DNA from: Firmicutes bacterium HGW-Firmicutes-2
GTDB taxonomy: Bacteria; Bacillota; Clostridia; Lachnospirales; Vallitaleaceae
DNA length: 24,000 nucleotides
Reading direction: 5' to 3'
Assembly: GCA_002841495.1 (NCBI GenBank)
Contig: PGZV01000018.1
Coordinates: 25,612-49,611, forward strand
Under the pieces are notes generated by a model, which was given only the letters and a program-made list of their open reading frames with translations, had not been told where the DNA came from and made no database searches. Of this stretch, positions 13,351 through 24,000 are shown one piece after another. The translations under genes were made by a program, and so were the position numbers. How positions within the stretch are numbered: the first letter of the stretch is position 1; each line of letters opens with the position of its first letter.

Positions 13351-13379
13351 TTGACGCATATCTTTAATACCATTGTAAT
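13351..13379 (+). promoter_or_regulatory. Candidate sigma-A promoter for the CAP/SLH gene
   Basis: TTGACG (13351-13356), a 17-nt spacer, then TGTAAT (13374-13379). A second candidate extended -10 element, TGATATAAT, lies at 13398-13406. No experimental support. Confidence 0.3.
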
Positions 13380-13452
13380 GAGGTTGACATCATCATTTGA
13401 TATAATGAGATTTGTAGAATTGTATTATTATGAGTTAGGAGATGGCAATATC

Positions 13453-14805
13453 ATGAAGCGAATTATTATGTGGATACTAATATTAATCATAGCTATGGGC
13501 AGTAAGTCATATGCAAGTACTATAGTCATTCAATCAAAAATTGATGCAGATGAGATTGAAAGAACCGTTAATGCCATCAATATCTCAAGGGAGAATATGT
13601 CTTTGAGGCCACTTAGAGTCAATAATACTCTAAAAGAAATGGCTTTGACTCATTCAAAATATATGAATCACAATAAGACTTTATCCAGTATGGAACAAGC
13701 CGGAAAACTTTATTTTAGGGGTCGATATCCATGGGATAGGGCAAATTTCTTTAAATACAATAAAGCCTATGTTTATGAATTCGTTAAAAAAGATTTGAAT
13801 AATTACATGGAAGGTTATAATCAGCTCATTCATGACCCTGTAACGAGAGTTGTATTATTAGATAATCAGTACTTAGACATTGGCATGAATAAAGAAAATA
13901 ATTACTTTACATACTTATTAGGAGGTAGTGTACGAACTGAAGATCAGTTGGTGATTTATCCATATGATGGATTAAAAAATGTTCCATTAAAATGGCAAGG
14001 AGATTCTCATGCATTGCTTTATAAAAATACGACAACAAATGGTAATTTTGGTTTGCCGATTACGGTGACTTACTATGGTAATCCCATTGAAAGAGTAACA
14101 TCTTTAAAAAGTTCCATAGTACGAAAGGACAATGGTAAATCTGTAAGTCATAGAGTTATACTTCCGACGGATCTACATCAATTAAAAAATACCATAACAC
14201 TTTTACCACTTGAAGCTTATGATCAGAATACAACCTATCAAGTTAAAGCGAGCTTTATCTTACGACTGGAAAATGGATCATTAAAGTATATTAATGAAAC
14301 AATTGAATTTACGACAACGAGTAGTGTCGTAAAATCTACGGATAGCAGATATTTGACAAGAGCTCTTTTTGTTGAAAAAGTTTTAAAGAATCAATTTTTA
14401 GGCTTTACATTGCAAGAACCTTTAAAGCTTGAGTTTAAAGATGTGGATATAAACTCAACTGAAAGCATTTATATCTATACCGCAAGTCAAGAAAACTTGA
14501 TTTCCGGTTTTCCGGACCAGAGTTTCAGACCTTTAATAAATATTACAAAAGAGCAAGCGTATATTATACTTATTAAAGCCTATGAAAAGAAATTTCCCAG
14601 GATTTCTTTAAGCGGTAGTGATCAACTTAATCAATACCAAGATCATACCAATATTAGCAGTTGGGCCAGAGAATCCTTATTGAAAGCACAACAACTTGGC
14701 ATAGTGATTCATACGAATAAAAGAATTGAACCACAAGCTTTTATTAAAGAAGATGAATTTGACCAAATAATGGCCTTATTTAGTAAAGTTTTAAAAGATA
14801 AATAG
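13453..14805 (+). CDS. Secreted cell-wall-associated protein with an N-terminal CAP/SCP (YkwD-like) domain, a central beta-rich region and C-terminal SLH repeats
   Basis: The start is placed at the ATG at 13453, 11 nt after an AGGAG RBS. This gives the signal peptide MKRIIMWILILIIAMGSKSYA/S. The CAP-like region includes INISRENMSLRPLRVNNTLKEMALTHSKYM. SLH-like repeats include FKDVDINSTESIYIYTASQENLISGFPDQSFRPLINITKEQAYIIL and a second repeat around ISSWARESLLKAQQLGIV. The track start at 13351 adds a non-homologous extension. Confidence 0.75.
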   Translation: MKRIIMWILILIIAMGSKSYASTIVIQSKIDADEIERTVNAINISRENMSLRPLRVNNTLKEMALTHSKYMNHNKTLSSMEQAGKLYFRGRYPWDRANFFKYNKAYVYEFVKKDLNNYMEGYNQLIHDPVTRVVLLDNQYLDIGMNKENNYFTYLLGGSVRTEDQLVIYPYDGLKNVPLKWQGDSHALLYKNTTTNGNFGLPITVTYYGNPIERVTSLKSSIVRKDNGKSVSHRVILPTDLHQLKNTITLLPLEAYDQNTTYQVKASFILRLENGSLKYINETIEFTTTSSVVKSTDSRYLTRALFVEKVLKNQFLGFTLQEPLKLEFKDVDINSTESIYIYTASQENLISGFPDQSFRPLINITKEQAYIILIKAYEKKFPRISLSGSDQLNQYQDHTNISSWARESLLKAQQLGIVIHTNKRIEPQAFIKEDEFDQIMALFSKVLKDK

Positions 14806-16455: not shown

Positions 16456-16729
16456 GTCTTTAAATAATTACATACCTAGGACATATTATGTTGTATCAAC
16501 TTACAAGTTAAATTATACTAATACTAAGCGTTTCTTATATTTAATTGTAGGAAACATTTACAAATATTTATTGCAATTAGAAGAATAATTATGTGTTCCA
16601 TTTATATAGCCGGATTTATAATGCATTTCCATTTAAGACAATCAGATATAAATAAGTCTTTTATAGAAGCATCACCGATTTGGTTATATATGTAAAAATA
16701 AAATGCATTTAAAAAAAGGGAGGTCAATT

Positions 16730-17830
16730 ATGTTTAAGAAATTATTAACAATCGTATTCGCTTTAGCAATGATTTTATCATTGGCTCTTGTAACAGGTTG
16801 CGCAAAAAATGAACCAGAGGTTACAACAGATCCGGTGGCTGAAACACCAGAAGAAACACCAGAAGAAGAACCTGCAGAGGTTAGAGAGTTTACAGTAGGG
16901 CTTGTAACTGACGTTGGTGGTATTGATGACAAATCATTCAACCAAGGTACTTGGGAAGGTATCCTTGAATTTGCATCAGCAAAAGGTGCTCAAACAAAAT
17001 ATCTTCAATCGGATTCGGATGCAGACTATATTCCAAATCTATCAAACTTCTCAGACGAAGAGATGGACATTATCATAGCACCAGGCTTTTTATTTGAAGC
17101 TGCTTTAACAGAAGTTGCAACGAATTTCCCAGACCAAAAATATCTAATTATTGATATGGTAATTGGTGATAAACCTAATGTTGCCAGTGCAGTATTTGCT
17201 GAAGAACAAGGATCATTCCTTGTTGGTGTTGCAGCAGCTTTAACAGCACAAGAAGCTGGAAAAGACACAGTAGGTTTTATTGGCGGTATGGACTTTGACC
17301 TTATTCAAAAATTTGAAGCAGGATTTGAAGCTGGTGTTGCAGCTGTTGATCCTAATATGACTGTGTTAGTTGAGTATGCAGGCGATTTCTCAAACGCACA
17401 AATCGGTCAAACTTTAGCAGCTAAAATGTATAATCAAGGTGCATATATTATTTTCCATGCAGCTGGTGGTACAGGAAACGGACTGATTAAAGAAGCTAAA
17501 GACCGTCGTACAAATGGAGAAGATGTTTGGGCGATAGGTGTTGATAAAGATCAATATGAAGATGGTATCTATGAAGGTGATATGTCAGCTGTTTTGACAT
17601 CTATGATGAAACGTGTTGACGTAGCAGCATATGATGTGGCTGAAATGACTTACAATGGTAATTTCCCAGGTGGCGGAATCCTTGTATTTGACTTGACGAA
17701 CCAAGGTGTTGGTATACCAGAAACCAATCCAAACTTAGCGGATACAGTTGTAGAAGAAGTAAAAGTATATGAAGGAAAAGTTGTTGCTGGTGAAATTGAA
17801 GTACCGGTAATACCAAATCGTTTAAAATAG
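16730..17830 (+). CDS. BMP-family (PnrA/Med/NupN-like) ABC transporter substrate-binding lipoprotein, probably nucleoside-binding
   Basis: The ATG at 16730 lies 6 nt after a GGGAGG RBS. The signal peptide ends in the lipobox LVTG|C. A PE-rich linker is followed by the BMP core GLVTDVGGIDDKSFNQGTWEGI...IIAPGF...GFIGGMD. The track start at 16703 reads through the RBS. Confidence 0.92.
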   Translation: MFKKLLTIVFALAMILSLALVTGCAKNEPEVTTDPVAETPEETPEEEPAEVREFTVGLVTDVGGIDDKSFNQGTWEGILEFASAKGAQTKYLQSDSDADYIPNLSNFSDEEMDIIIAPGFLFEAALTEVATNFPDQKYLIIDMVIGDKPNVASAVFAEEQGSFLVGVAAALTAQEAGKDTVGFIGGMDFDLIQKFEAGFEAGVAAVDPNMTVLVEYAGDFSNAQIGQTLAAKMYNQGAYIIFHAAGGTGNGLIKEAKDRRTNGEDVWAIGVDKDQYEDGIYEGDMSAVLTSMMKRVDVAAYDVAEMTYNGNFPGGGILVFDLTNQGVGIPETNPNLADTVVEEVKVYEGKVVAGEIEVPVIPNRLK

Positions 17831-17844
17831 TTTATTTACTTTTT

Positions 17845-17876
17845 AAAGCCAAGACGATTTAGTCTTGGCTTTTTAT
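17845..17876 (+). terminator. Rho-independent terminator directly after the binding-protein gene
   Basis: AAAGCCAAGAC (17845-17855) pairs with GTCTTGGCTTT (17862-17872) across the loop GATTTA. The stem is followed by TTTTAT. Confidence 0.85.
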
Positions 17877-17882
17877 CTTCCA

Positions 17883-17959
17883 TCATCATGCTCTACTGCA
17901 TGATGACCATTGTTACTTAGAAATCTAAGTGGTAATGGTCATCATACCGTTGTAACAAT
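17883..17959 (+). promoter_or_regulatory. Structured leader or inverted-repeat element upstream of the glycyl-radical enzyme gene; class unknown
   Basis: P1 pairs 17883-17891 (TCATCATGC) with 17898-17906 (GCATGATGA). P2 is 21 bp, pairing 17900-17920 with 17925-17945 across the loop AAAT, and includes three G-U pairs. P1 and P2 share nucleotides 17900-17906 and are therefore mutually exclusive. A third option pairs ATTGTTAC (17909-17916) with GTAACAAT (17952-17959). No T-tract follows any of these stems. Confidence 0.3.
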
Positions 17960-17996
17960 CCATGTATATATGAACCTGAAATGAAGAGGTAAAAAT

Positions 17997-19520
17997 ATGA
18001 GATCTGTCCTAAATGATTTGACATCGATAGCTTCTGCTATCAATATGACGTATCAACAAAAGCTTTCCTCAATGGCAAATATTGGAGAAAGACTTGTAGA
18101 TCCAAGAGTGTCATTAGGCTACACTGATGAAGAGATGATATATATTGAAAACGACATGATTTGTGATCTGAATGAAGGCTATTTACCTTACAGACCCAGA
18201 TATATCGTTCCTGATTATGATGTCTTTGTTAGAAATGGCTGTGATTTCCTAGACATAAAGCCACCAACAGACTTGGATACCCTCCTTGACGGACTGTTAA
18301 TACTTTATCGCCATGTACCATCTATTACATCCTTTCCTGTCTACATAGGTAGATTAGATCAACTTATAGACCCTTTCATTCGTGATGAGGCTTCAGATTA
18401 TACTAAAATAAAAAGATTTTTAAATCATATTGATAAAACCATTGTCGATTCTTTTTGTCATGGAAATATTGGTCCATCACAGACCCGTGCCGGTTATTTA
18501 ATATTAAAAGCCGTGGTTGAGCTACAGAACCCGACACCCAACTTAACGTTATTATATGATGCACATTTAACATCAAAAGATTTTGCCCTTGAAGCTGTAA
18601 AAACATGTTTGTTAGCTGCAAAACCATCTTTTAGTAATCAAGTTATGTACCAAAAAGATGTTGGTAATCATGGGATTGTCAGTTGTTATAATGCACTGCC
18701 ATTAGCAGGTGGTGCCTATACACTTTTAAGATTAAGACTAGGAACAATGGCAAAAAAAGCGGATTCTACGAAACAGTTTATTGAAGATATTTTGCCCGAA
18801 GTTGCAATTAAAATGGCAACGATGATGGATAAAAGGGTCAAATATATGGTGGAGCAAAGCAACTTTTTTGAAACGTCCTTTTTGATTAAGGAAGGTTTTA
18901 TCAGTCAGGAAAATTTTACGGCTATGTTTGGTATCGTAGGTTTAGCGGATGCGGTGAATCACCTATTAAAACTTGAAGGAATTTTAGAAACCTTTGGACA
19001 ATCAATAAGAGGCGATGAAATAGGCCATAAAATCTTATCTACATTAGAACAAATTGTGGATCAACATGAGGCACCTTATCTTCAAAGGACCGATGGCCAT
19101 TACCTATTACATGCACAAGTCGGTGCGGACTTAAGTCCAGAAGATAAAGACAATACTCCGGCTCATCGCATCAAAGTAGGTCAAGAGCCTATACTACCCA
19201 TTCATTTAACCCAATCTGCGTCTTTTCATAAATACTTCAAATCCGGAACAGGTGACTTATTTGCATTTGATCAAACCTATTTGGACCACTTAGACGCTCT
19301 TCTTGATATTATTCAAGGTGCTTTTTCTGAGGGCTACCGATACATTACCACCTATTTGCAGAACTCTGATTTAATTAGAGTAACAGGTTATTTGGTGAAA
19401 CGCAGTGATGTTGAACGATTTAATCATAATCAAGTTGTTCTAAGAGATACGGATATATTTGGTAGTGGTACCAATAATAACGCTAATGTTTTTAACAGAC
19501 AAACGAGGACCTACAAGTGA
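17997..19520 (+). CDS. yjjI: YjjI-family (DUF3029) putative glycyl-radical enzyme
   Basis: 507 aa. The glycyl-radical fingerprint RVTGY occupies residues 461-465 (nt 19377-19391; Gly464 at 19386-19388), about 43 aa from the C-terminus. A candidate thiyl-Cys loop, GIVSCYNALP, contains Cys230 at 18684-18686. The size and the pairing with a YjjW-type activase match E. coli YjjI/YjjW, which are about 516 and 287 aa from memory. An AGAGG RBS lies 7 nt upstream. Confidence 0.75.
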   Translation: MRSVLNDLTSIASAINMTYQQKLSSMANIGERLVDPRVSLGYTDEEMIYIENDMICDLNEGYLPYRPRYIVPDYDVFVRNGCDFLDIKPPTDLDTLLDGLLILYRHVPSITSFPVYIGRLDQLIDPFIRDEASDYTKIKRFLNHIDKTIVDSFCHGNIGPSQTRAGYLILKAVVELQNPTPNLTLLYDAHLTSKDFALEAVKTCLLAAKPSFSNQVMYQKDVGNHGIVSCYNALPLAGGAYTLLRLRLGTMAKKADSTKQFIEDILPEVAIKMATMMDKRVKYMVEQSNFFETSFLIKEGFISQENFTAMFGIVGLADAVNHLLKLEGILETFGQSIRGDEIGHKILSTLEQIVDQHEAPYLQRTDGHYLLHAQVGADLSPEDKDNTPAHRIKVGQEPILPIHLTQSASFHKYFKSGTGDLFAFDQTYLDHLDALLDIIQGAFSEGYRYITTYLQNSDLIRVTGYLVKRSDVERFNHNQVVLRDTDIFGSGTNNNANVFNRQTRTYK

Positions 19521-20359
19521 ATCAGAAGATCTTAGTGAATCAGATTATACCCTTTTCAAATGTAGACGGAGAAGGTAACCGGTGTAGTATTTTTGTTCAA
19601 GGCTGTCAGTTAAATTGCCTCTATTGCCATAACAGTGAGACGATTCAGACATGCAGAAATTGTGGTATTTGTATTGAGCATTGCCCCAGTCATGCATTAA
19701 GCTTTCAATCTAATCTCGTTATATATGAAGAAAGTCAATGTAGTCATTGTGATACGTGTATAATGGTATGTCCTTATCAATCAACACCAAAAGCAAAAGC
19801 ATATACTCAAGACGACCTCATGGCCAGGATAGAAATATATCGTCCATATATTAGAGGTGTAACTTTGTCTGGAGGCGAGCCTACACTTTATGCTGATTTT
19901 TTGACGGGGTTGGCACAAAAAATCAAAAAACTCGGGTTAACTGTATATATCGACTCTAACGGATTCTTTGACTTTGAAGCTACTTCACCATTAATTAATA
20001 TTGTTGATGGATTTTTGTTGGATATTAAAGCAGTCGATAACATCGAACATCTTTGTGGTATAAAAAGTCAGCTTCATTTAAAAAATCTAGAAAAGTTACT
20101 TGGAATTAATAAAGTTATAGAAGTTAGGACGGTGCTTTTAAATAAGCATATGGATCAGATGAATACGCTGAATCAGGTGGTAGATCGATTAGAAGGCTAT
20201 CCTCAGGTGCCTTATAGACTTATAAGAGCCCATGTTACAGGACTAAAAAAAGTGCAAGAGGCATATATCGGTGAGGCCATTATGACTGAGGAAGAATTTG
20301 TGGCTTACGGTGACTATTTGAACCAAAAAGGTTTTCATAACTTTAAGTTACAGAGATAA
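19517..20359 (+). CDS. yjjW: YjjW-type glycyl-radical enzyme activating enzyme (radical SAM)
   Basis: The GTG start overlaps the upstream stop (GTGA), which suggests translational coupling. The N-terminus, VDGEGNRCSIFVQGCQLNCLYCHN, carries the activase CX3CX2C motif. Two ferredoxin-like motifs follow: CRNCGICIEHCP and CSHCDTCIMVCP. The SAM-binding motif is LSGGEPTL. Confidence 0.85.
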   Translation: MNQKILVNQIIPFSNVDGEGNRCSIFVQGCQLNCLYCHNSETIQTCRNCGICIEHCPSHALSFQSNLVIYEESQCSHCDTCIMVCPYQSTPKAKAYTQDDLMARIEIYRPYIRGVTLSGGEPTLYADFLTGLAQKIKKLGLTVYIDSNGFFDFEATSPLINIVDGFLLDIKAVDNIEHLCGIKSQLHLKNLEKLLGINKVIEVRTVLLNKHMDQMNTLNQVVDRLEGYPQVPYRLIRAHVTGLKKVQEAYIGEAIMTEEEFVAYGDYLNQKGFHNFKLQR

Positions 20360-20421: not shown

Positions 20422-21948
20422 ATGGAATACGTAGTTGAAATGCTGAATATCACTAAAGAATTTCCAGGCATAAAAGCAAATGATGATGTAACCTTACGGG
20501 TTGAAAAAGGAGAAATCCATGCGTTGCTCGGAGAGAATGGTGCAGGTAAATCGACCTTAATGAGTGTATTATTTGGATTATATCAAGCAGAAAAAGGAAC
20601 CATAAGAATTCATGGTAAAGAAGTTGATATCAGCAATCCGAACGTGGCGAACAAGCATGGCATTGGAATGGTGCATCAACATTTTAAGCTTGTTCACAAT
20701 TTCACAGTAACTGAAAACATTATTTTAGGTTTAGAGCCTACTAAATCTTTCGGACGTATTGATATTGATAAAGCTGCTAAAAAAGTTATGGAAATTAGCC
20801 AAAAGTACGGGCTGAAAGTAGATCCTCATTCTAAAATCGAAGATATTACTGTAGGTATGCAACAAAGAGTAGAGATTCTAAAGATGCTATATAGAAACGC
20901 AGAAATCTTAATTTTTGACGAACCCACTGCTGTTTTAACACCTCAAGAAATAAAAGAATTAATGGGTATTATGCGCGAGTTGGTCAAAGAAGGAAAATCT
21001 ATTGTACTCATTACGCATAAGTTGAAAGAAATATCCATGGTAGCAGACCACTGTACGGTACTTAGAAGAGGTCGATATATAGGAACTGTTAAAGTTTCAG
21101 AGACCACAGAAGAAGAAATGGCTGAGATGATGGTAGGACGTGAAGTTAGCTTTGAAGTAGATAAAGTACCTGCTACGCCTTCTGATATTGTGTTGAAAAT
21201 TGAAAATCTTAATATTAAGAATTCAAGAAACCTTATGGCAGTCAAAAATCTTAATCTTGAAGTAAAGGCCGGAGAAATATTATGTGTTGCGGGAATAGAT
21301 GGTAATGGGCAATCAGAATTAATTAAAGGCATTACAGGGCTTACAAAAATTGAATCCGGCAAGATCTTATTTGACGGTCAGGATATTGCTCATGATTCCG
21401 TTAGAAATAGAACACTTAAGGGTATTGGACATATTCCAGAAGACAGACATAAATATGGACTGGTTTTAGATTTCTCATTAGAAGAAAATATGGCGCTTCA
21501 AAGTTATTTTCAAGAACCTTTGTCAAAAAATGGTATTTTACAACCGGAGGCACTTAGAAAACATTCTGACATTTTAATTGAAGAGTTTGATATTAGAAGT
21601 GGGCAAGGTAGTGTTACAAGTGCCAGATCTATGTCCGGAGGTAATCAGCAAAAAGCAATTATCGCCAGAGAAGTGGAACGTTCGCCTAGACTATTAATAG
21701 CAGCTCAACCAACGAGAGGACTGGATGTAGGTGCTATTGAATATATTCATCAACGTTTGGTGAGAGAACGGGATAGTGGGAAAGCTATTTTACTCATGTC
21801 TCTGGAGATGGAAGAAGTATTGAATCTATCCGACCGTATTGCTGTTATATATGAAGGTGAGATAGTCGGCATCGTTGATGCAACAAAAACTAATGAGAAC
21901 GAACTTGGTTTGATGATGGCCGGTTCAAGAAAGGGGAAAGTTGATTAA
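20422..21948 (+). CDS. ABC transporter ATP-binding protein with duplicated ATPase domains (NupO/RnsB-like, BMP-type nucleoside/sugar importer)
   Basis: 508 aa. Walker A motif GENGAGKST, signature-like VGMQQRVEI, Walker B ILIFDEPT. The second domain carries a degenerate P-loop (GIDGNGQSE), LSGGNQQK-like MSGGNQQKA and LLIAAQPTRGLD. An AGGAG RBS lies upstream. Confidence 0.93.
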   Translation: MEYVVEMLNITKEFPGIKANDDVTLRVEKGEIHALLGENGAGKSTLMSVLFGLYQAEKGTIRIHGKEVDISNPNVANKHGIGMVHQHFKLVHNFTVTENIILGLEPTKSFGRIDIDKAAKKVMEISQKYGLKVDPHSKIEDITVGMQQRVEILKMLYRNAEILIFDEPTAVLTPQEIKELMGIMRELVKEGKSIVLITHKLKEISMVADHCTVLRRGRYIGTVKVSETTEEEMAEMMVGREVSFEVDKVPATPSDIVLKIENLNIKNSRNLMAVKNLNLEVKAGEILCVAGIDGNGQSELIKGITGLTKIESGKILFDGQDIAHDSVRNRTLKGIGHIPEDRHKYGLVLDFSLEENMALQSYFQEPLSKNGILQPEALRKHSDILIEEFDIRSGQGSVTSARSMSGGNQQKAIIAREVERSPRLLIAAQPTRGLDVGAIEYIHQRLVRERDSGKAILLMSLEMEEVLNLSDRIAVIYEGEIVGIVDATKTNENELGLMMAGSRKGKVD

Positions 21949-21950
21949 TC

Positions 21951-23051
21951 ATGAAGAAATTTATCGATTTCATCACAAACGAGAAGAATCATAAGTTCGT
22001 CATCCCTGCAATTGCCATTTTTTTGGGTTTCTTTGTAGGATCAATTATCCTAATCCTAACAGGACAAAATCCGATTAAACTATTTACTTCTATCATTAGA
22101 GGCGTTCTTGGGATTGATATGAGCCGTATTGGAAGCGGAAGAAGTGTTTTTAACGCCAGATATGTTGGAGAATATTTTGTATTTGCTATGCCAATAATCT
22201 TAACAGGTCTGTCTGTGGCTTTTGCATTTAGAACAGGTTTGTTTAATATAGGTGCAGAAGGACAACTTTTAGTTGGTTCTTTTGCCTCTGTAGCAGCAGG
22301 GGTGACCCTAGACCTTCCCGGTGTTATATTACTACCGGTGGTTATTCTTTCAGGTACATTAGCTGGTGCTATATGGGGATTTGTACCGGGTATACTTAAA
22401 GCAAAGTTTAATGTGCATGAGGTTGTTGTCACCATCATGATGAATTATACAGCTTTATATTTAACCAATTATTACTTAAAACAGTTGCCAGGTAGTGATA
22501 ATGTAAAATCTATACCACTACCCGCCGGCGCTACCCTGAAAAGTGAGTTTTTGATTGAGATGACCAATAGATCTAGATTGCATTGGGGTTTTATTCTCGT
22601 TATTATTGCCATTTTCATATTTTGGTATATTATTGAAAAAACAACCTTTGGCTATGAGTTAAAAGCAGTTGGATATAACCCTCATGCAGCTAGATATGCA
22701 GGGATGAAAGTAGAGCGTAATGCGGCGTTATCTATGGCTATTGCAGGCGCGTTTTCCGGTCTAGCCGGAACGGTCATAGCTATTGGTACTTTTGGTTATG
22801 GTAGAGTACTAGGAAGTTTTGAGAATTATGGATTTGAAGGTATAGCCGTAGCTCTCGTTGGTGGTAACACAGCTCTTGGCTCTGTGTTTGGCGGGTTGTT
22901 GTTTGGCTCATTGAGCGCCGCGCAACCGGTCATGCAATCCAGTGGCATACCTAGAGATATTGCCATTATTATCAGTTCAACGATTATCTTATTTGTAGCG
23001 ATGCAAAATGGAATTAAAATTATTCTTAAACGTATAAAGGGGGCAAAGTAA
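21951..23051 (+). CDS. ABC transporter permease (NupP/YufP-like)
   Basis: 366-aa polytopic membrane protein. It begins 2 nt after the ATPase stop. The branched-chain/ribose-type permease core includes FNIGAEGQLLVGSF. Confidence 0.9.
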   Translation: MKKFIDFITNEKNHKFVIPAIAIFLGFFVGSIILILTGQNPIKLFTSIIRGVLGIDMSRIGSGRSVFNARYVGEYFVFAMPIILTGLSVAFAFRTGLFNIGAEGQLLVGSFASVAAGVTLDLPGVILLPVVILSGTLAGAIWGFVPGILKAKFNVHEVVVTIMMNYTALYLTNYYLKQLPGSDNVKSIPLPAGATLKSEFLIEMTNRSRLHWGFILVIIAIFIFWYIIEKTTFGYELKAVGYNPHAARYAGMKVERNAALSMAIAGAFSGLAGTVIAIGTFGYGRVLGSFENYGFEGIAVALVGGNTALGSVFGGLLFGSLSAAQPVMQSSGIPRDIAIIISSTIILFVAMQNGIKIILKRIKGAK

Positions 23052-23052
23052 T

Positions 23053-24000
23053 ATGGATATACTTTACTCAATGTTGGCTTTGACGTTAATCTACTCAACT
23101 CCGATTATTATTACAGCGATTGGCGGTATGTTCTCAGAGCGTAGTGGTGTTGCTAATATTGCTCTTGAAGGCATGATGATGATTGGTGGTTTTACAGCAG
23201 CTACAACCATTGTATTTTTGGAAGGAACAACCAGTTTTGCGCCATGGATGTCTTTGATGATTGGTGCGTTGGCCGGAGGTCTCATATCTGTTATTCACGC
23301 TTACTTAAGCATACACTTAAGTAGTGATCAGATTATATCAGGAACAGCTATTAATATTTTGGCAGGTGGCTTGACCATCTATTTGTCTCAGATTATTTTC
23401 GGACAACAAAGAACGGCAACCTTTAGACAAGGCTTTATTAAGAGAACCTATAGTGGTTTAAGTGAGATTCCAATTATTGGAAAAATCTTTTTTACGAATA
23501 TGTATCCAACTGTATTCTTGGCATTTGCATTGGTAATACTAAGTTGGTATATTCTCTATAAAACCCCCTTTGGTCTTAGATTAAGAGCAACAGGTGAGCA
23601 TCCTCATGCCGTAGACAGTATGGGTATCAGTGTTTATAAGATGCGTTATATCGGTGTTATTGTATCCGGATGTCTTGCGGGACTTGGTGGTGGGGTTATG
23701 GTATTGACCCAAGATACGCAATTCACGATTATGAGTATTCATGGTACTGGATTTATTGCTCTTGCAGCATTGATATTTGGTAAGTGGAGGCCCCTTGGTC
23801 TATTAAGTGCAAGTTTGTTCTTTGGCTTTTCACAGATACTAAGTATTTACTCAACCAGTATTGGTTTTTTATCGAAATTACCAATGGAGTATTTTAAAGC
23901 ACTACCATATATATTTACAATTGTGGCGTTGGTCGTATTTAGTAATAAAGCGGTTGGTCCAAAAGCTGTAGGCGAACCTTATGACAAAGGTCAAAGATAA
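23053..24000 (+). CDS. ABC transporter permease (NupQ/YufQ-like)
   Basis: 315-aa polytopic membrane protein. It begins 1 nt after the preceding stop. It contains SERSGVANIALEGMMMIGGF. The TAA stop falls exactly at 23998-24000. Confidence 0.9.
   Translation: MDILYSMLALTLIYSTPIIITAIGGMFSERSGVANIALEGMMMIGGFTAATTIVFLEGTTSFAPWMSLMIGALAGGLISVIHAYLSIHLSSDQIISGTAINILAGGLTIYLSQIIFGQQRTATFRQGFIKRTYSGLSEIPIIGKIFFTNMYPTVFLAFALVILSWYILYKTPFGLRLRATGEHPHAVDSMGISVYKMRYIGVIVSGCLAGLGGGVMVLTQDTQFTIMSIHGTGFIALAALIFGKWRPLGLLSASLFFGFSQILSIYSTSIGFLSKLPMEYFKALPYIFTIVALVVFSNKAVGPKAVGEPYDKGQR

Follow-up and report, generated by a model that had tools for sequence, protein, structure and literature searches.

Which substrate is handled by a glycyl-radical enzyme (GRE) encoded in the midst of a predicted nucleoside-importer operon is the question raised by a two-gene unit, yjjI followed by yjjW, in the genome of Firmicutes bacterium HGW-Firmicutes-2. 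The stretch of DNA analyzed here, referred to below as the window, comprises 24,000 nucleotides of contig PGZV01000018.1 (positions 25,612 to 49,611; assembly GCA_002841495.1), and the pair occupies its positions 17997..20359. An earlier note, made by reading the letters of the sequence, had described an unusually short GRE with no assigned chemistry, and this agrees with the searchable literature up to late 2026, where no reaction assigned to YjjI was found and where a preprint of August 2026 still calls the E. coli protein an uncharacterized putative GRE (10.64898/2026.08.13.742689). The reading we favor, at a rough probability of 0.55, is that the pair constitutes a working YjjI/YjjW GRE system, which acts on a nucleoside delivered by the flanking PnrA-type importer or on a pentose, free or phosphorylated, formed from such a nucleoside. 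This assignment of the substrate is made because of the gene neighborhood and the fold, both described below along with the competing explanations.

Identity and Integrity of the yjjI-yjjW Pair

The segment 17997..20359 is with certainty a YjjI/YjjW pair and adds another member to an already known family. The two genes are as follows.

17997..19520, + strand: yjjI, a YjjI-family glycyl-radical enzyme of 507 residues (PF11230, TIGR04040)
19517..20359, + strand: yjjW, a radical-SAM activase of 280 residues, long form (TIGR04041, Radical_SAM, Fer4_12, Fer4_7)

The searches with hidden Markov models (HMMs) that had been proposed for checking this call all returned matches above the curated cut-offs: YjjI scores 703.4 bits against TIGR04040 (cut-off 498.3) and is aligned to Pfam PF11230, formerly DUF3029, over model positions 1-485 of 485 (E = 1.6e-206), and YjjW reaches 284.8 bits against TIGR04041 (cut-off 250.2) along with matches to Radical_SAM, Fer4_12, and Fer4_7. 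The fingerprint RVTGY occupies residues 461-465, Gly464 (codon 19386-19388) lying 43 residues before the C-terminus, and the thiyl loop GIVSCYNALPL surrounds Cys230 (codon 18684-18686); both motifs were thus found as initially read in the 507-residue open reading frame and at the expected places. Cysteines of YjjI are located at positions 56, 82, 154, 204, and 230, with none after the latter. S229, C230, N232, R461, and G464 are invariant in 19 diverse and 87 closer members of the family, and together with E60, R68, Y69, H155, N182, R245, E299, H372, Q374, D383, and R391 they form the set retained in 19/19 diverse members. Cys230 is the only universally conserved cysteine of the family; Cys56 is kept in 87/87 closer members and E. 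coli and in 13/19 diverse ones. Since all full-length representatives measure about 490-530 residues, the shortness noticed at the outset, some 250-350 residues in comparison with PFL-type GREs, is a trait of the family as a whole. Radical trapping in living E. coli cells labelled Gly465 of YjjI (10.64898/2026.08.13.742689), the equivalent of Gly464 in the window, and this result was counted for GRE identity; anaerobic induction of yjjI and yjjW was reported for Yersinia intermedia (PMC3792023).

The yjjI gene ends with TAC AAG TGA, and the GTG start of yjjW (19517-19519), preceded by AGGA at a distance of 7-8 nucleotides, creates a 4-nucleotide GTGA overlap through which translation of yjjW appears to be coupled to that of yjjI. 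The 280-residue product contains C30-X3-C34-X2-C37 and two motifs of the CX2CX2CX3C type (C46/49/52/56 and C75/78/81/85), so the initial description of a coupled activase with a CX3CX2C cluster and two ferredoxin-type motifs holds in all its parts. Scores against other activase models (147 bits for the T4HPD activase, 130 bits for PFLE_PFLC, and 82 bits or less for NrdG models) place ferredoxin-domain activases of the PFL clan closest to YjjW, far above NrdG. The long form of YjjW, about 280 residues with two CX2CX2CX3C motifs, is found in the window, E. coli, and Clostridium, and a short form of about 240-265 residues without ferredoxin motifs in Pasteurellaceae, Vallitaleaceae (loci L013 and L015), Treponema, and Izemoplasma; both forms occur inside the same tight YjjI clade.

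One might ask if YjjI is a catalyst at all, and not a non-catalytic or decayed protein persisting as a radical-bearing relic or a sensor. Two observations would be compatible with decay. In Haemophilus parainfluenzae (L035, L040-L045, L050, L051, and other loci), a full-length yjjI is followed by a convergent recQ-like helicase gene with no yjjW after it, and the gene might be an orphan or in decay (yjjI-yjjW-nupC-deoD is intact in H. influenzae and H. haemolyticus). In one congener (G404:C1:997624-998952), the match to YjjI extends only over model positions 1-442 (376 bits) and is interrupted by a single in-frame TAA, representing either a pseudogene or an assembly error. Against this explanation stand the extreme conservation, with about 30 residues invariant across the family, the intact state of the window gene and its apparent translational coupling to the activase, and the presence of yjjI in 5/5 genomes of the genus, which together render it highly improbable. 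At larger scale, yjjI was detected in 9/15 genomes of the family and in 23/401 sampled genomes of the phylum.

Fold and Relation to Other Glycyl-Radical Enzymes

A profile search of PDB sequences for a solved structure of a YjjI family member returned marginal NrdD and PFL matches only, and the fold was considered on an AlphaFold2 model built on 87 sequences (mean pLDDT 93.6, pTM 0.92). In this model, strands 225-228 and 232-235 make up a hairpin with Cys230 at its tip, strands 459-462 and 465-468 another one with Gly464 at its tip, and about five strands precede each hairpin, which is the pattern of the ten-stranded barrel of GREs and ribonucleotide reductases (RNRs). Such a confidently predicted barrel with both residues at hairpin tips would fit the arrangement, Cys230 opposite Gly464, for which the earlier note had proposed a fold check. 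Invariant R68, Y69, H155, N182, R245, H372, and Q374 are modeled on barrel strands or at their start, and this distribution of polar residues would fit a polar or anionic ligand of sugar type.

Comparison of the model with PDB by Foldseek gave exclusively NrdD, the class III RNR, as the top 20 matches (TM 0.67-0.75, E down to 5e-15; P. copri, S. thermophilus, phage T4, and T. maritima), the second tier being formed by PFL-clan enzymes led by PflD (8yjo, E = 9e-12). An NrdD-like predicted fold of YjjI was noted in 2011 (PMC3228777). Alignment of the YjjI profile by HHalign with an NrdD profile, built from sequences of the own genome, its relatives, and E. coli, yielded a probability of 97.5% over 377 columns at 12-13% identity and paired Cys230 with Cys384 of E. 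coli NrdD, Gly464-Tyr465 with Gly681-Tyr682 (NrdD RRVCG681Y), and Val228 with Met382. YjjI and NrdD thus share common ancestry and core architecture, and both are tied to the metabolism of nucleosides or nucleotides, YjjI through its gene neighborhood.

Such a proximity gives sense to the suggestion that YjjI is a stripped-down anaerobic ribonucleotide or ribonucleoside reductase, which would use an external reductant and serve as a back-up for NrdD or pass ribose into the DeoC route as an electron sink. Beyond the nearest fold and the aligned Cys and Gly loops, it could appeal to several invariant Arg and His residues that could bind phosphate, to the position of the pair next to deoC (deoxyribose-specific aldolase) in E. 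coli, Edwardsiella, and Pasteurellaceae, and to the tmk and folA neighbors found in some Clostridia. Several features specific to class III RNRs are, however, absent or probably so. Class III RNRs all need a second catalytic Cys on the first barrel strand (PMC11226230); a local alignment anchored on Gly81/Gly187 and Asp73/Asp179, although it is a fragment alignment of low confidence, sets invariant Tyr69 at the position of NrdD Cys175, suggesting that this cysteine has probably been replaced in YjjI. Cys56 was considered as its equivalent but found no support, as neither relaxed whole-length HHalign nor the fragment alignment pairs it with Cys175 and its retention is restricted to 13 of the 19 diverse members. 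The position of Met382 is occupied by Ala or Val across the family, and the Zn ribbon of NrdD (residues 644-665, Cys644 to Cys665) is an insertion missing from YjjI, in accord with the remark of the earlier note that the NrdD-type Zn site before the glycine is lacking. The specificity site is likewise absent, and no ATP-cone domain was matched in YjjI, where just 55-85 residues precede the aligned core. PF13597 (NRDD) gave no match to the window protein at E <= 0.01, and only weak precomputed matches to it are available for a subgroup of YjjI proteins of 497 residues. The activase is not NrdG-like, as seen above. Finally, canonical NrdD is encoded in the own genome, in E. coli, and in 5/5 other YjjI-bearing genomes tested, and the possibility that YjjI is the only anaerobic RNR of the organism is ruled out by this protein of about 800 residues in the own genome and in the other YjjI genomes checked. 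With the ATP-cone, the Zn ribbon, the formate-type Met, and probably the second Cys gone, YjjI is therefore not regarded as an RNR, and a reductase role appears unlikely; more likely, YjjI is built for redox-neutral radical chemistry with a single cysteine.

In its predicted ten-stranded barrel with Cys/Gly finger loops, YjjI resembles the eliminases and lyases of the PFL clan (PflD, glycerol and propanediol dehydratases, HypD, and CutC), and single-cysteine, redox-neutral chemistry like theirs fits it best. Another proposal is that YjjI is a 2-keto-acid C-C lyase like PFL or performs another classical reaction of this clan, e.g., on a fermentation intermediate. An annotation of EcoGene times treats HI0521 as a pflB homologue, YjjW is nearest to activases of the clan such as that of hydroxyproline dehydratase, and around residues 164-226 YjjI gives a match to PF02901 (PFL-like). 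The latter amounts to 16.9 bits, under the gathering threshold of 24.3; PFL-type structures score below NrdD; the thiyl loop S-C-Y-N lacks the Cys-Cys pair of PFL type; and YjjI, apart from its smaller size, differs from the clan in having Asn and not Glu at Cys+2 and in matching none of the family HMMs. A classical PFL-clan reaction is therefore very improbable, more so than the reductase role.

The Predicted Nucleoside-Importer Operon of the Window

The strongest clue to the role of YjjI is the nucleoside-importer operon around the pair, arranged in the order Bmp/PnrA lipoprotein, hairpins, yjjI, yjjW, ABC ATPase, and two BPD_transp_2 permeases. Genes of the importer are located as follows.

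16703..17830, + strand: substrate-binding lipoprotein of Bmp/PnrA type (purine-nucleoside receptor type), first importer gene (Pfam PF02608 Bmp, E = 6.3e-79)
20422..21948, + strand: ABC transporter ATPase of 508 residues, RbsA/RnsA-like in length (NCBIfam ABC ATPase, E = 4e-139 and below)
21951..23051, + strand: ABC permease 1, BPD_transp_2 (Pfam PF02653, E = 1.6e-45)
23053..24000, + strand: ABC permease 2, BPD_transp_2, the reading frame being open at the 3' end of the window (Pfam PF02653, E = 8.3e-46)

Residues 62-373 of the binding protein match the T. pallidum TmpC/PnrA structures 2fqw, 2fqx, and 2fqy (E = 1.3e-114), and the gene set, i.e., binding protein, ATPase, and two BPD_transp_2 permeases, is that of the T. 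pallidum PnrA (TmpC) importer, with the difference that in the window yjjI-yjjW is inserted between the genes of binding protein and ATPase, as also in some Treponema and Sphaerochaetaceae. The importer is thus predicted to be of the PnrA/TmpC purine-nucleoside type, its ligand specificity being deduced from this likeness. The scan for terminators predicted none in the 62-nucleotide gap between yjjW and the ATPase gene, and at related loci the ATPase gene occupies the same place after yjjW. The ATPase and both permeases hence appear to be transcribed through yjjI-yjjW, which would make YjjI and YjjW the sole enzymes co-transcribed with the PnrA-type importer. Elsewhere, the own genome encodes a second, ordinary Bmp-type transporter, deoD, deoC, and a homologue of thymidine phosphorylase.

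Recurrence of the Nucleoside Link and Its Weighing

Neighborhoods were compared for 80 loci from species-representative genomes, 20 loci from the phylum sample, and that of E. coli; open reading frames were called and clustered, the neighbors were named by Pfam, and YjjI proteins were grouped at 85% identity into 45 lineage groups. A nucleoside transporter or a deo gene is situated near the pair in 16/45 of these groups, always at a distance of 0-3 genes. The background, estimated from one genome only, is that about 3% of the own genome lies this near to such genes; the binomial P for 16/45 equals 1e-13 at this value and 4e-6 at a background of 10%, both figures being rough as the lineages are not independent. 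In the maximum-likelihood tree, no fewer than five separate deep branches show the link, which involves three unrelated gene sets (Bmp-ABC, NupC, and deoCABD).

The embedded order known from the window (binding protein, yjjI, yjjW, ATPase, two permeases) is present in Vallitaleaceae, two Treponema, a Sphaerochaetaceae, a Deferribacteraceae, and several Clostridia, and in other lineages a Bmp transporter lies two to three genes from the pair. In Pasteurellaceae, yjjI-yjjW-nupC is continued by deoC-deoB-deoD or by deoD. E. coli yjjI-yjjW is divergent from deoCABD, and Edwardsiella repeats this arrangement having nupC on the other side; still other lineages carry deoD, deoB, and a gene for a Crp-type regulator upstream of the pair. 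Genes psuK (PfkB kinase) and psuG (Indigoidine_A, pseudouridine-5'-phosphate glycosidase type) stand beside yjjI in loci of Pasteurellaceae and Treponema (L025:7876-9902, L072:15908-17725). E. coli K-12 YjjI (b4380) and YjjW (b4379) thus resemble the window pair in adjoining nucleoside genes, as well as in length class, SCYN and RVTGY loops, and the long activase with two ferredoxin motifs; the window protein differs in being 38% identical to its E. coli counterpart, in belonging to a separate tight clade, and in its embedding in a Bmp/PnrA ABC operon instead of divergence from deoCABD.

Several neighborhoods deserve mention in their own right. In locus L116 (5241-8132), yjjI-yjjW is followed downstream by genes for an MtnA-like isomerase (IF-2B family), a class II aldolase, a regulator of SorC/DeoR type, and a Bmp ABC transporter, a set with a likeness to the salvage of 5-deoxyribose or methylthioribose. 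In a genome of Caminicella sporogenes type, the start of yjjI and a dihydrofolate reductase gene share 8 nucleotides (folA-yjjI-yjjW; L152:7499-9494), and in three other Clostridia the pair is followed by tmk-holB. In the genus represented by contig G160:C55 (L108), some 8 kb separate canonical nrdD from yjjI, and another small radical-SAM gene adjoins a polyprenyl synthase gene upstream of the Bmp transporter. A few of the loci without a nucleoside link do adjoin other genes of nucleotide metabolism (tmk, folA, phosphoribosyltransferase).

The distribution of the family has to be taken into account when this recurrence is interpreted. A YjjI search over 1.84 billion representatives revealed just 419 clusters at E <= 0.001. 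Identity of the window protein reaches 90-91% with proteins of a Firmicutes metagenome-assembled genome and Petrocella sp. and 62-64% with those of Pasteurellaceae, and the subgroup of 497 residues is about 48-50% identical to it. In the tree, a tight YjjI clade on a long stem unites Pasteurellaceae, Erysipelotrichaceae, Treponema, Deferribacteraceae, Izemoplasma, and many Clostridia, with E. coli far off, which indicates horizontal transfer across phyla.

These relations are used by the main competing explanation, according to which YjjI is a real GRE acting on a substrate unrelated to nucleosides and the two genes form a mobile cassette spread with nucleoside operons by chance or owing to shared anaerobic expression. 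The higher identity between Pasteurellaceae and Bacillota than to E. coli speaks for transfer of the pair, and the contexts of the 497-residue subgroup, Proteus, and Providencia are varied. What is difficult to reconcile with a passive passenger is that the link recurs with three different gene sets on separate deep branches, that the nucleoside gene, where linked, never lies farther than three genes away, and that expression of the window ATPase and permeases seems to pass through the pair. We consider an unrelated substrate possible but doubtful.

Several points weigh against a nucleoside-related substrate, and some of them are shared with that competitor. Within the examined loci, 29/45 lineages have no nucleoside gene nearby, including most of the 497-residue subgroup, many Clostridium loci, Proteus, and Providencia. 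The embedded arrangement may partly descend from one ancestral, horizontally spread operon, which makes the counts less than fully independent. Cleavage of nucleosides normally proceeds by non-radical routes. In YjjI, Asn232 takes the place of the Glu at Cys+2 that serves GRE eliminases as general base, and at 12-13% identity the likeness of the fold to NrdD speaks for common descent but does not tell the substrate. In a study of 2011, E. coli yjjI was co-expressed with nitrate- and FNR-regulated genes, not with nucleoside genes (PMC3228777). Given this balance, it is moderately likely that YjjI acts on an imported nucleoside or on a sugar product of it, a pentose or its phosphate.

A Candidate Reaction

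For a nucleoside-derived substrate, the course of catalysis may be outlined, with less confidence in its later steps. In anoxia, the [4Fe-4S] cluster of YjjW held by C30/C34/C37 and fed via two auxiliary clusters would cleave S-adenosylmethionine and take a hydrogen from Gly464; the glycyl radical would then turn Cys230, predicted to sit on the opposing finger-loop tip at the center of the ten-stranded barrel, into a thiyl radical. On account of the strong homology, it is very likely that the predicted radical on Gly464 forms and works through Cys230. Further, a carbon of the ribosyl substrate that bears a hydroxyl might lose a hydrogen to the thiyl radical, and the substrate radical might expel a neighboring group by 1,2-elimination, e.g., the 2'-hydroxyl, as in the first half of the RNR reaction; the hydrogen would then be regained from Cys230, closing a redox-neutral cycle. 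That YjjI carries out a 1,2-elimination of RNR type on the ribosyl ring, with no net reduction, is speculative. The narrower proposal that YjjI acts directly on the imported (purine) nucleoside or its pentose phosphate by a so far undescribed radical reaction is likewise tentative; one candidate here would be a 1,2-elimination that removes the 2'-hydroxyl or the base and leaves a deoxy- or keto-pentose able to enter the DeoB/DeoC route.

Leader Hairpins and Surroundings of the Operon

The gene 16703..17830 is separated from yjjI by a spacer of 166 nucleotides (17831-17996) with three hairpins.

17845..17872, + strand: terminator-like hairpin with T-run after the binding-protein gene (consensus scan; 11 pairs, then TTATCTT)
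17884..17942, + strand: two further hairpins in the yjjI leader, 17884-17905 and 17903-17942, the latter with an 18-bp stem (minimum free energy fold)

The first of them is identical in two relatives (L004 and L005) and is probably an attenuating stop tuning the ratio of binding protein to transporter. The hairpins of 17884-17942 are also kept in these relatives, which are 90% identical, with substitutions preserving G-U or G-C pairs. The possibility that the leader hairpins are a repeated or mobile element was ruled out by their single occurrence in the genome, and the search for a riboswitch or other known RNA near the operon gave no match in Rfam at E <= 1; they could be a candidate element of processing, stability, or attenuation.

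As a whole, the window represents the replication-origin region of a low-GC Firmicute: mnmE, jag, yidC, and rnpA are followed by dnaA, dnaN, recF, gyrB, and gyrA, and the genes of a split class I fumarate hydratase lie upstream of the nucleoside-importer operon. Between gyrA and the fumarate hydratase genes, positions 13351-14805 encode a protein of 484 residues with a CAP (cysteine-rich secretory protein) domain and an S-layer homology domain.

Significance for the Family

YjjI is one of the last GREs of E. coli without an assigned reaction, and its family occurs widely among anaerobes of the gut, the mouth, and sediments. The combination of a fold nearest to RNRs, lost reductase residues, and repeated independent placement at nucleoside and deo genes narrows the search for its substrate to a short, testable list. 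If the link to nucleosides is true, it would reveal an unknown anaerobic step in their use and show that the RNR scaffold has been reused for other chemistry. If YjjI proves to act directly on a nucleoside or pentose phosphate, nucleoside catabolism would gain its first glycyl-radical enzyme, one that links RNRs and GREs of the eliminase type in evolution.

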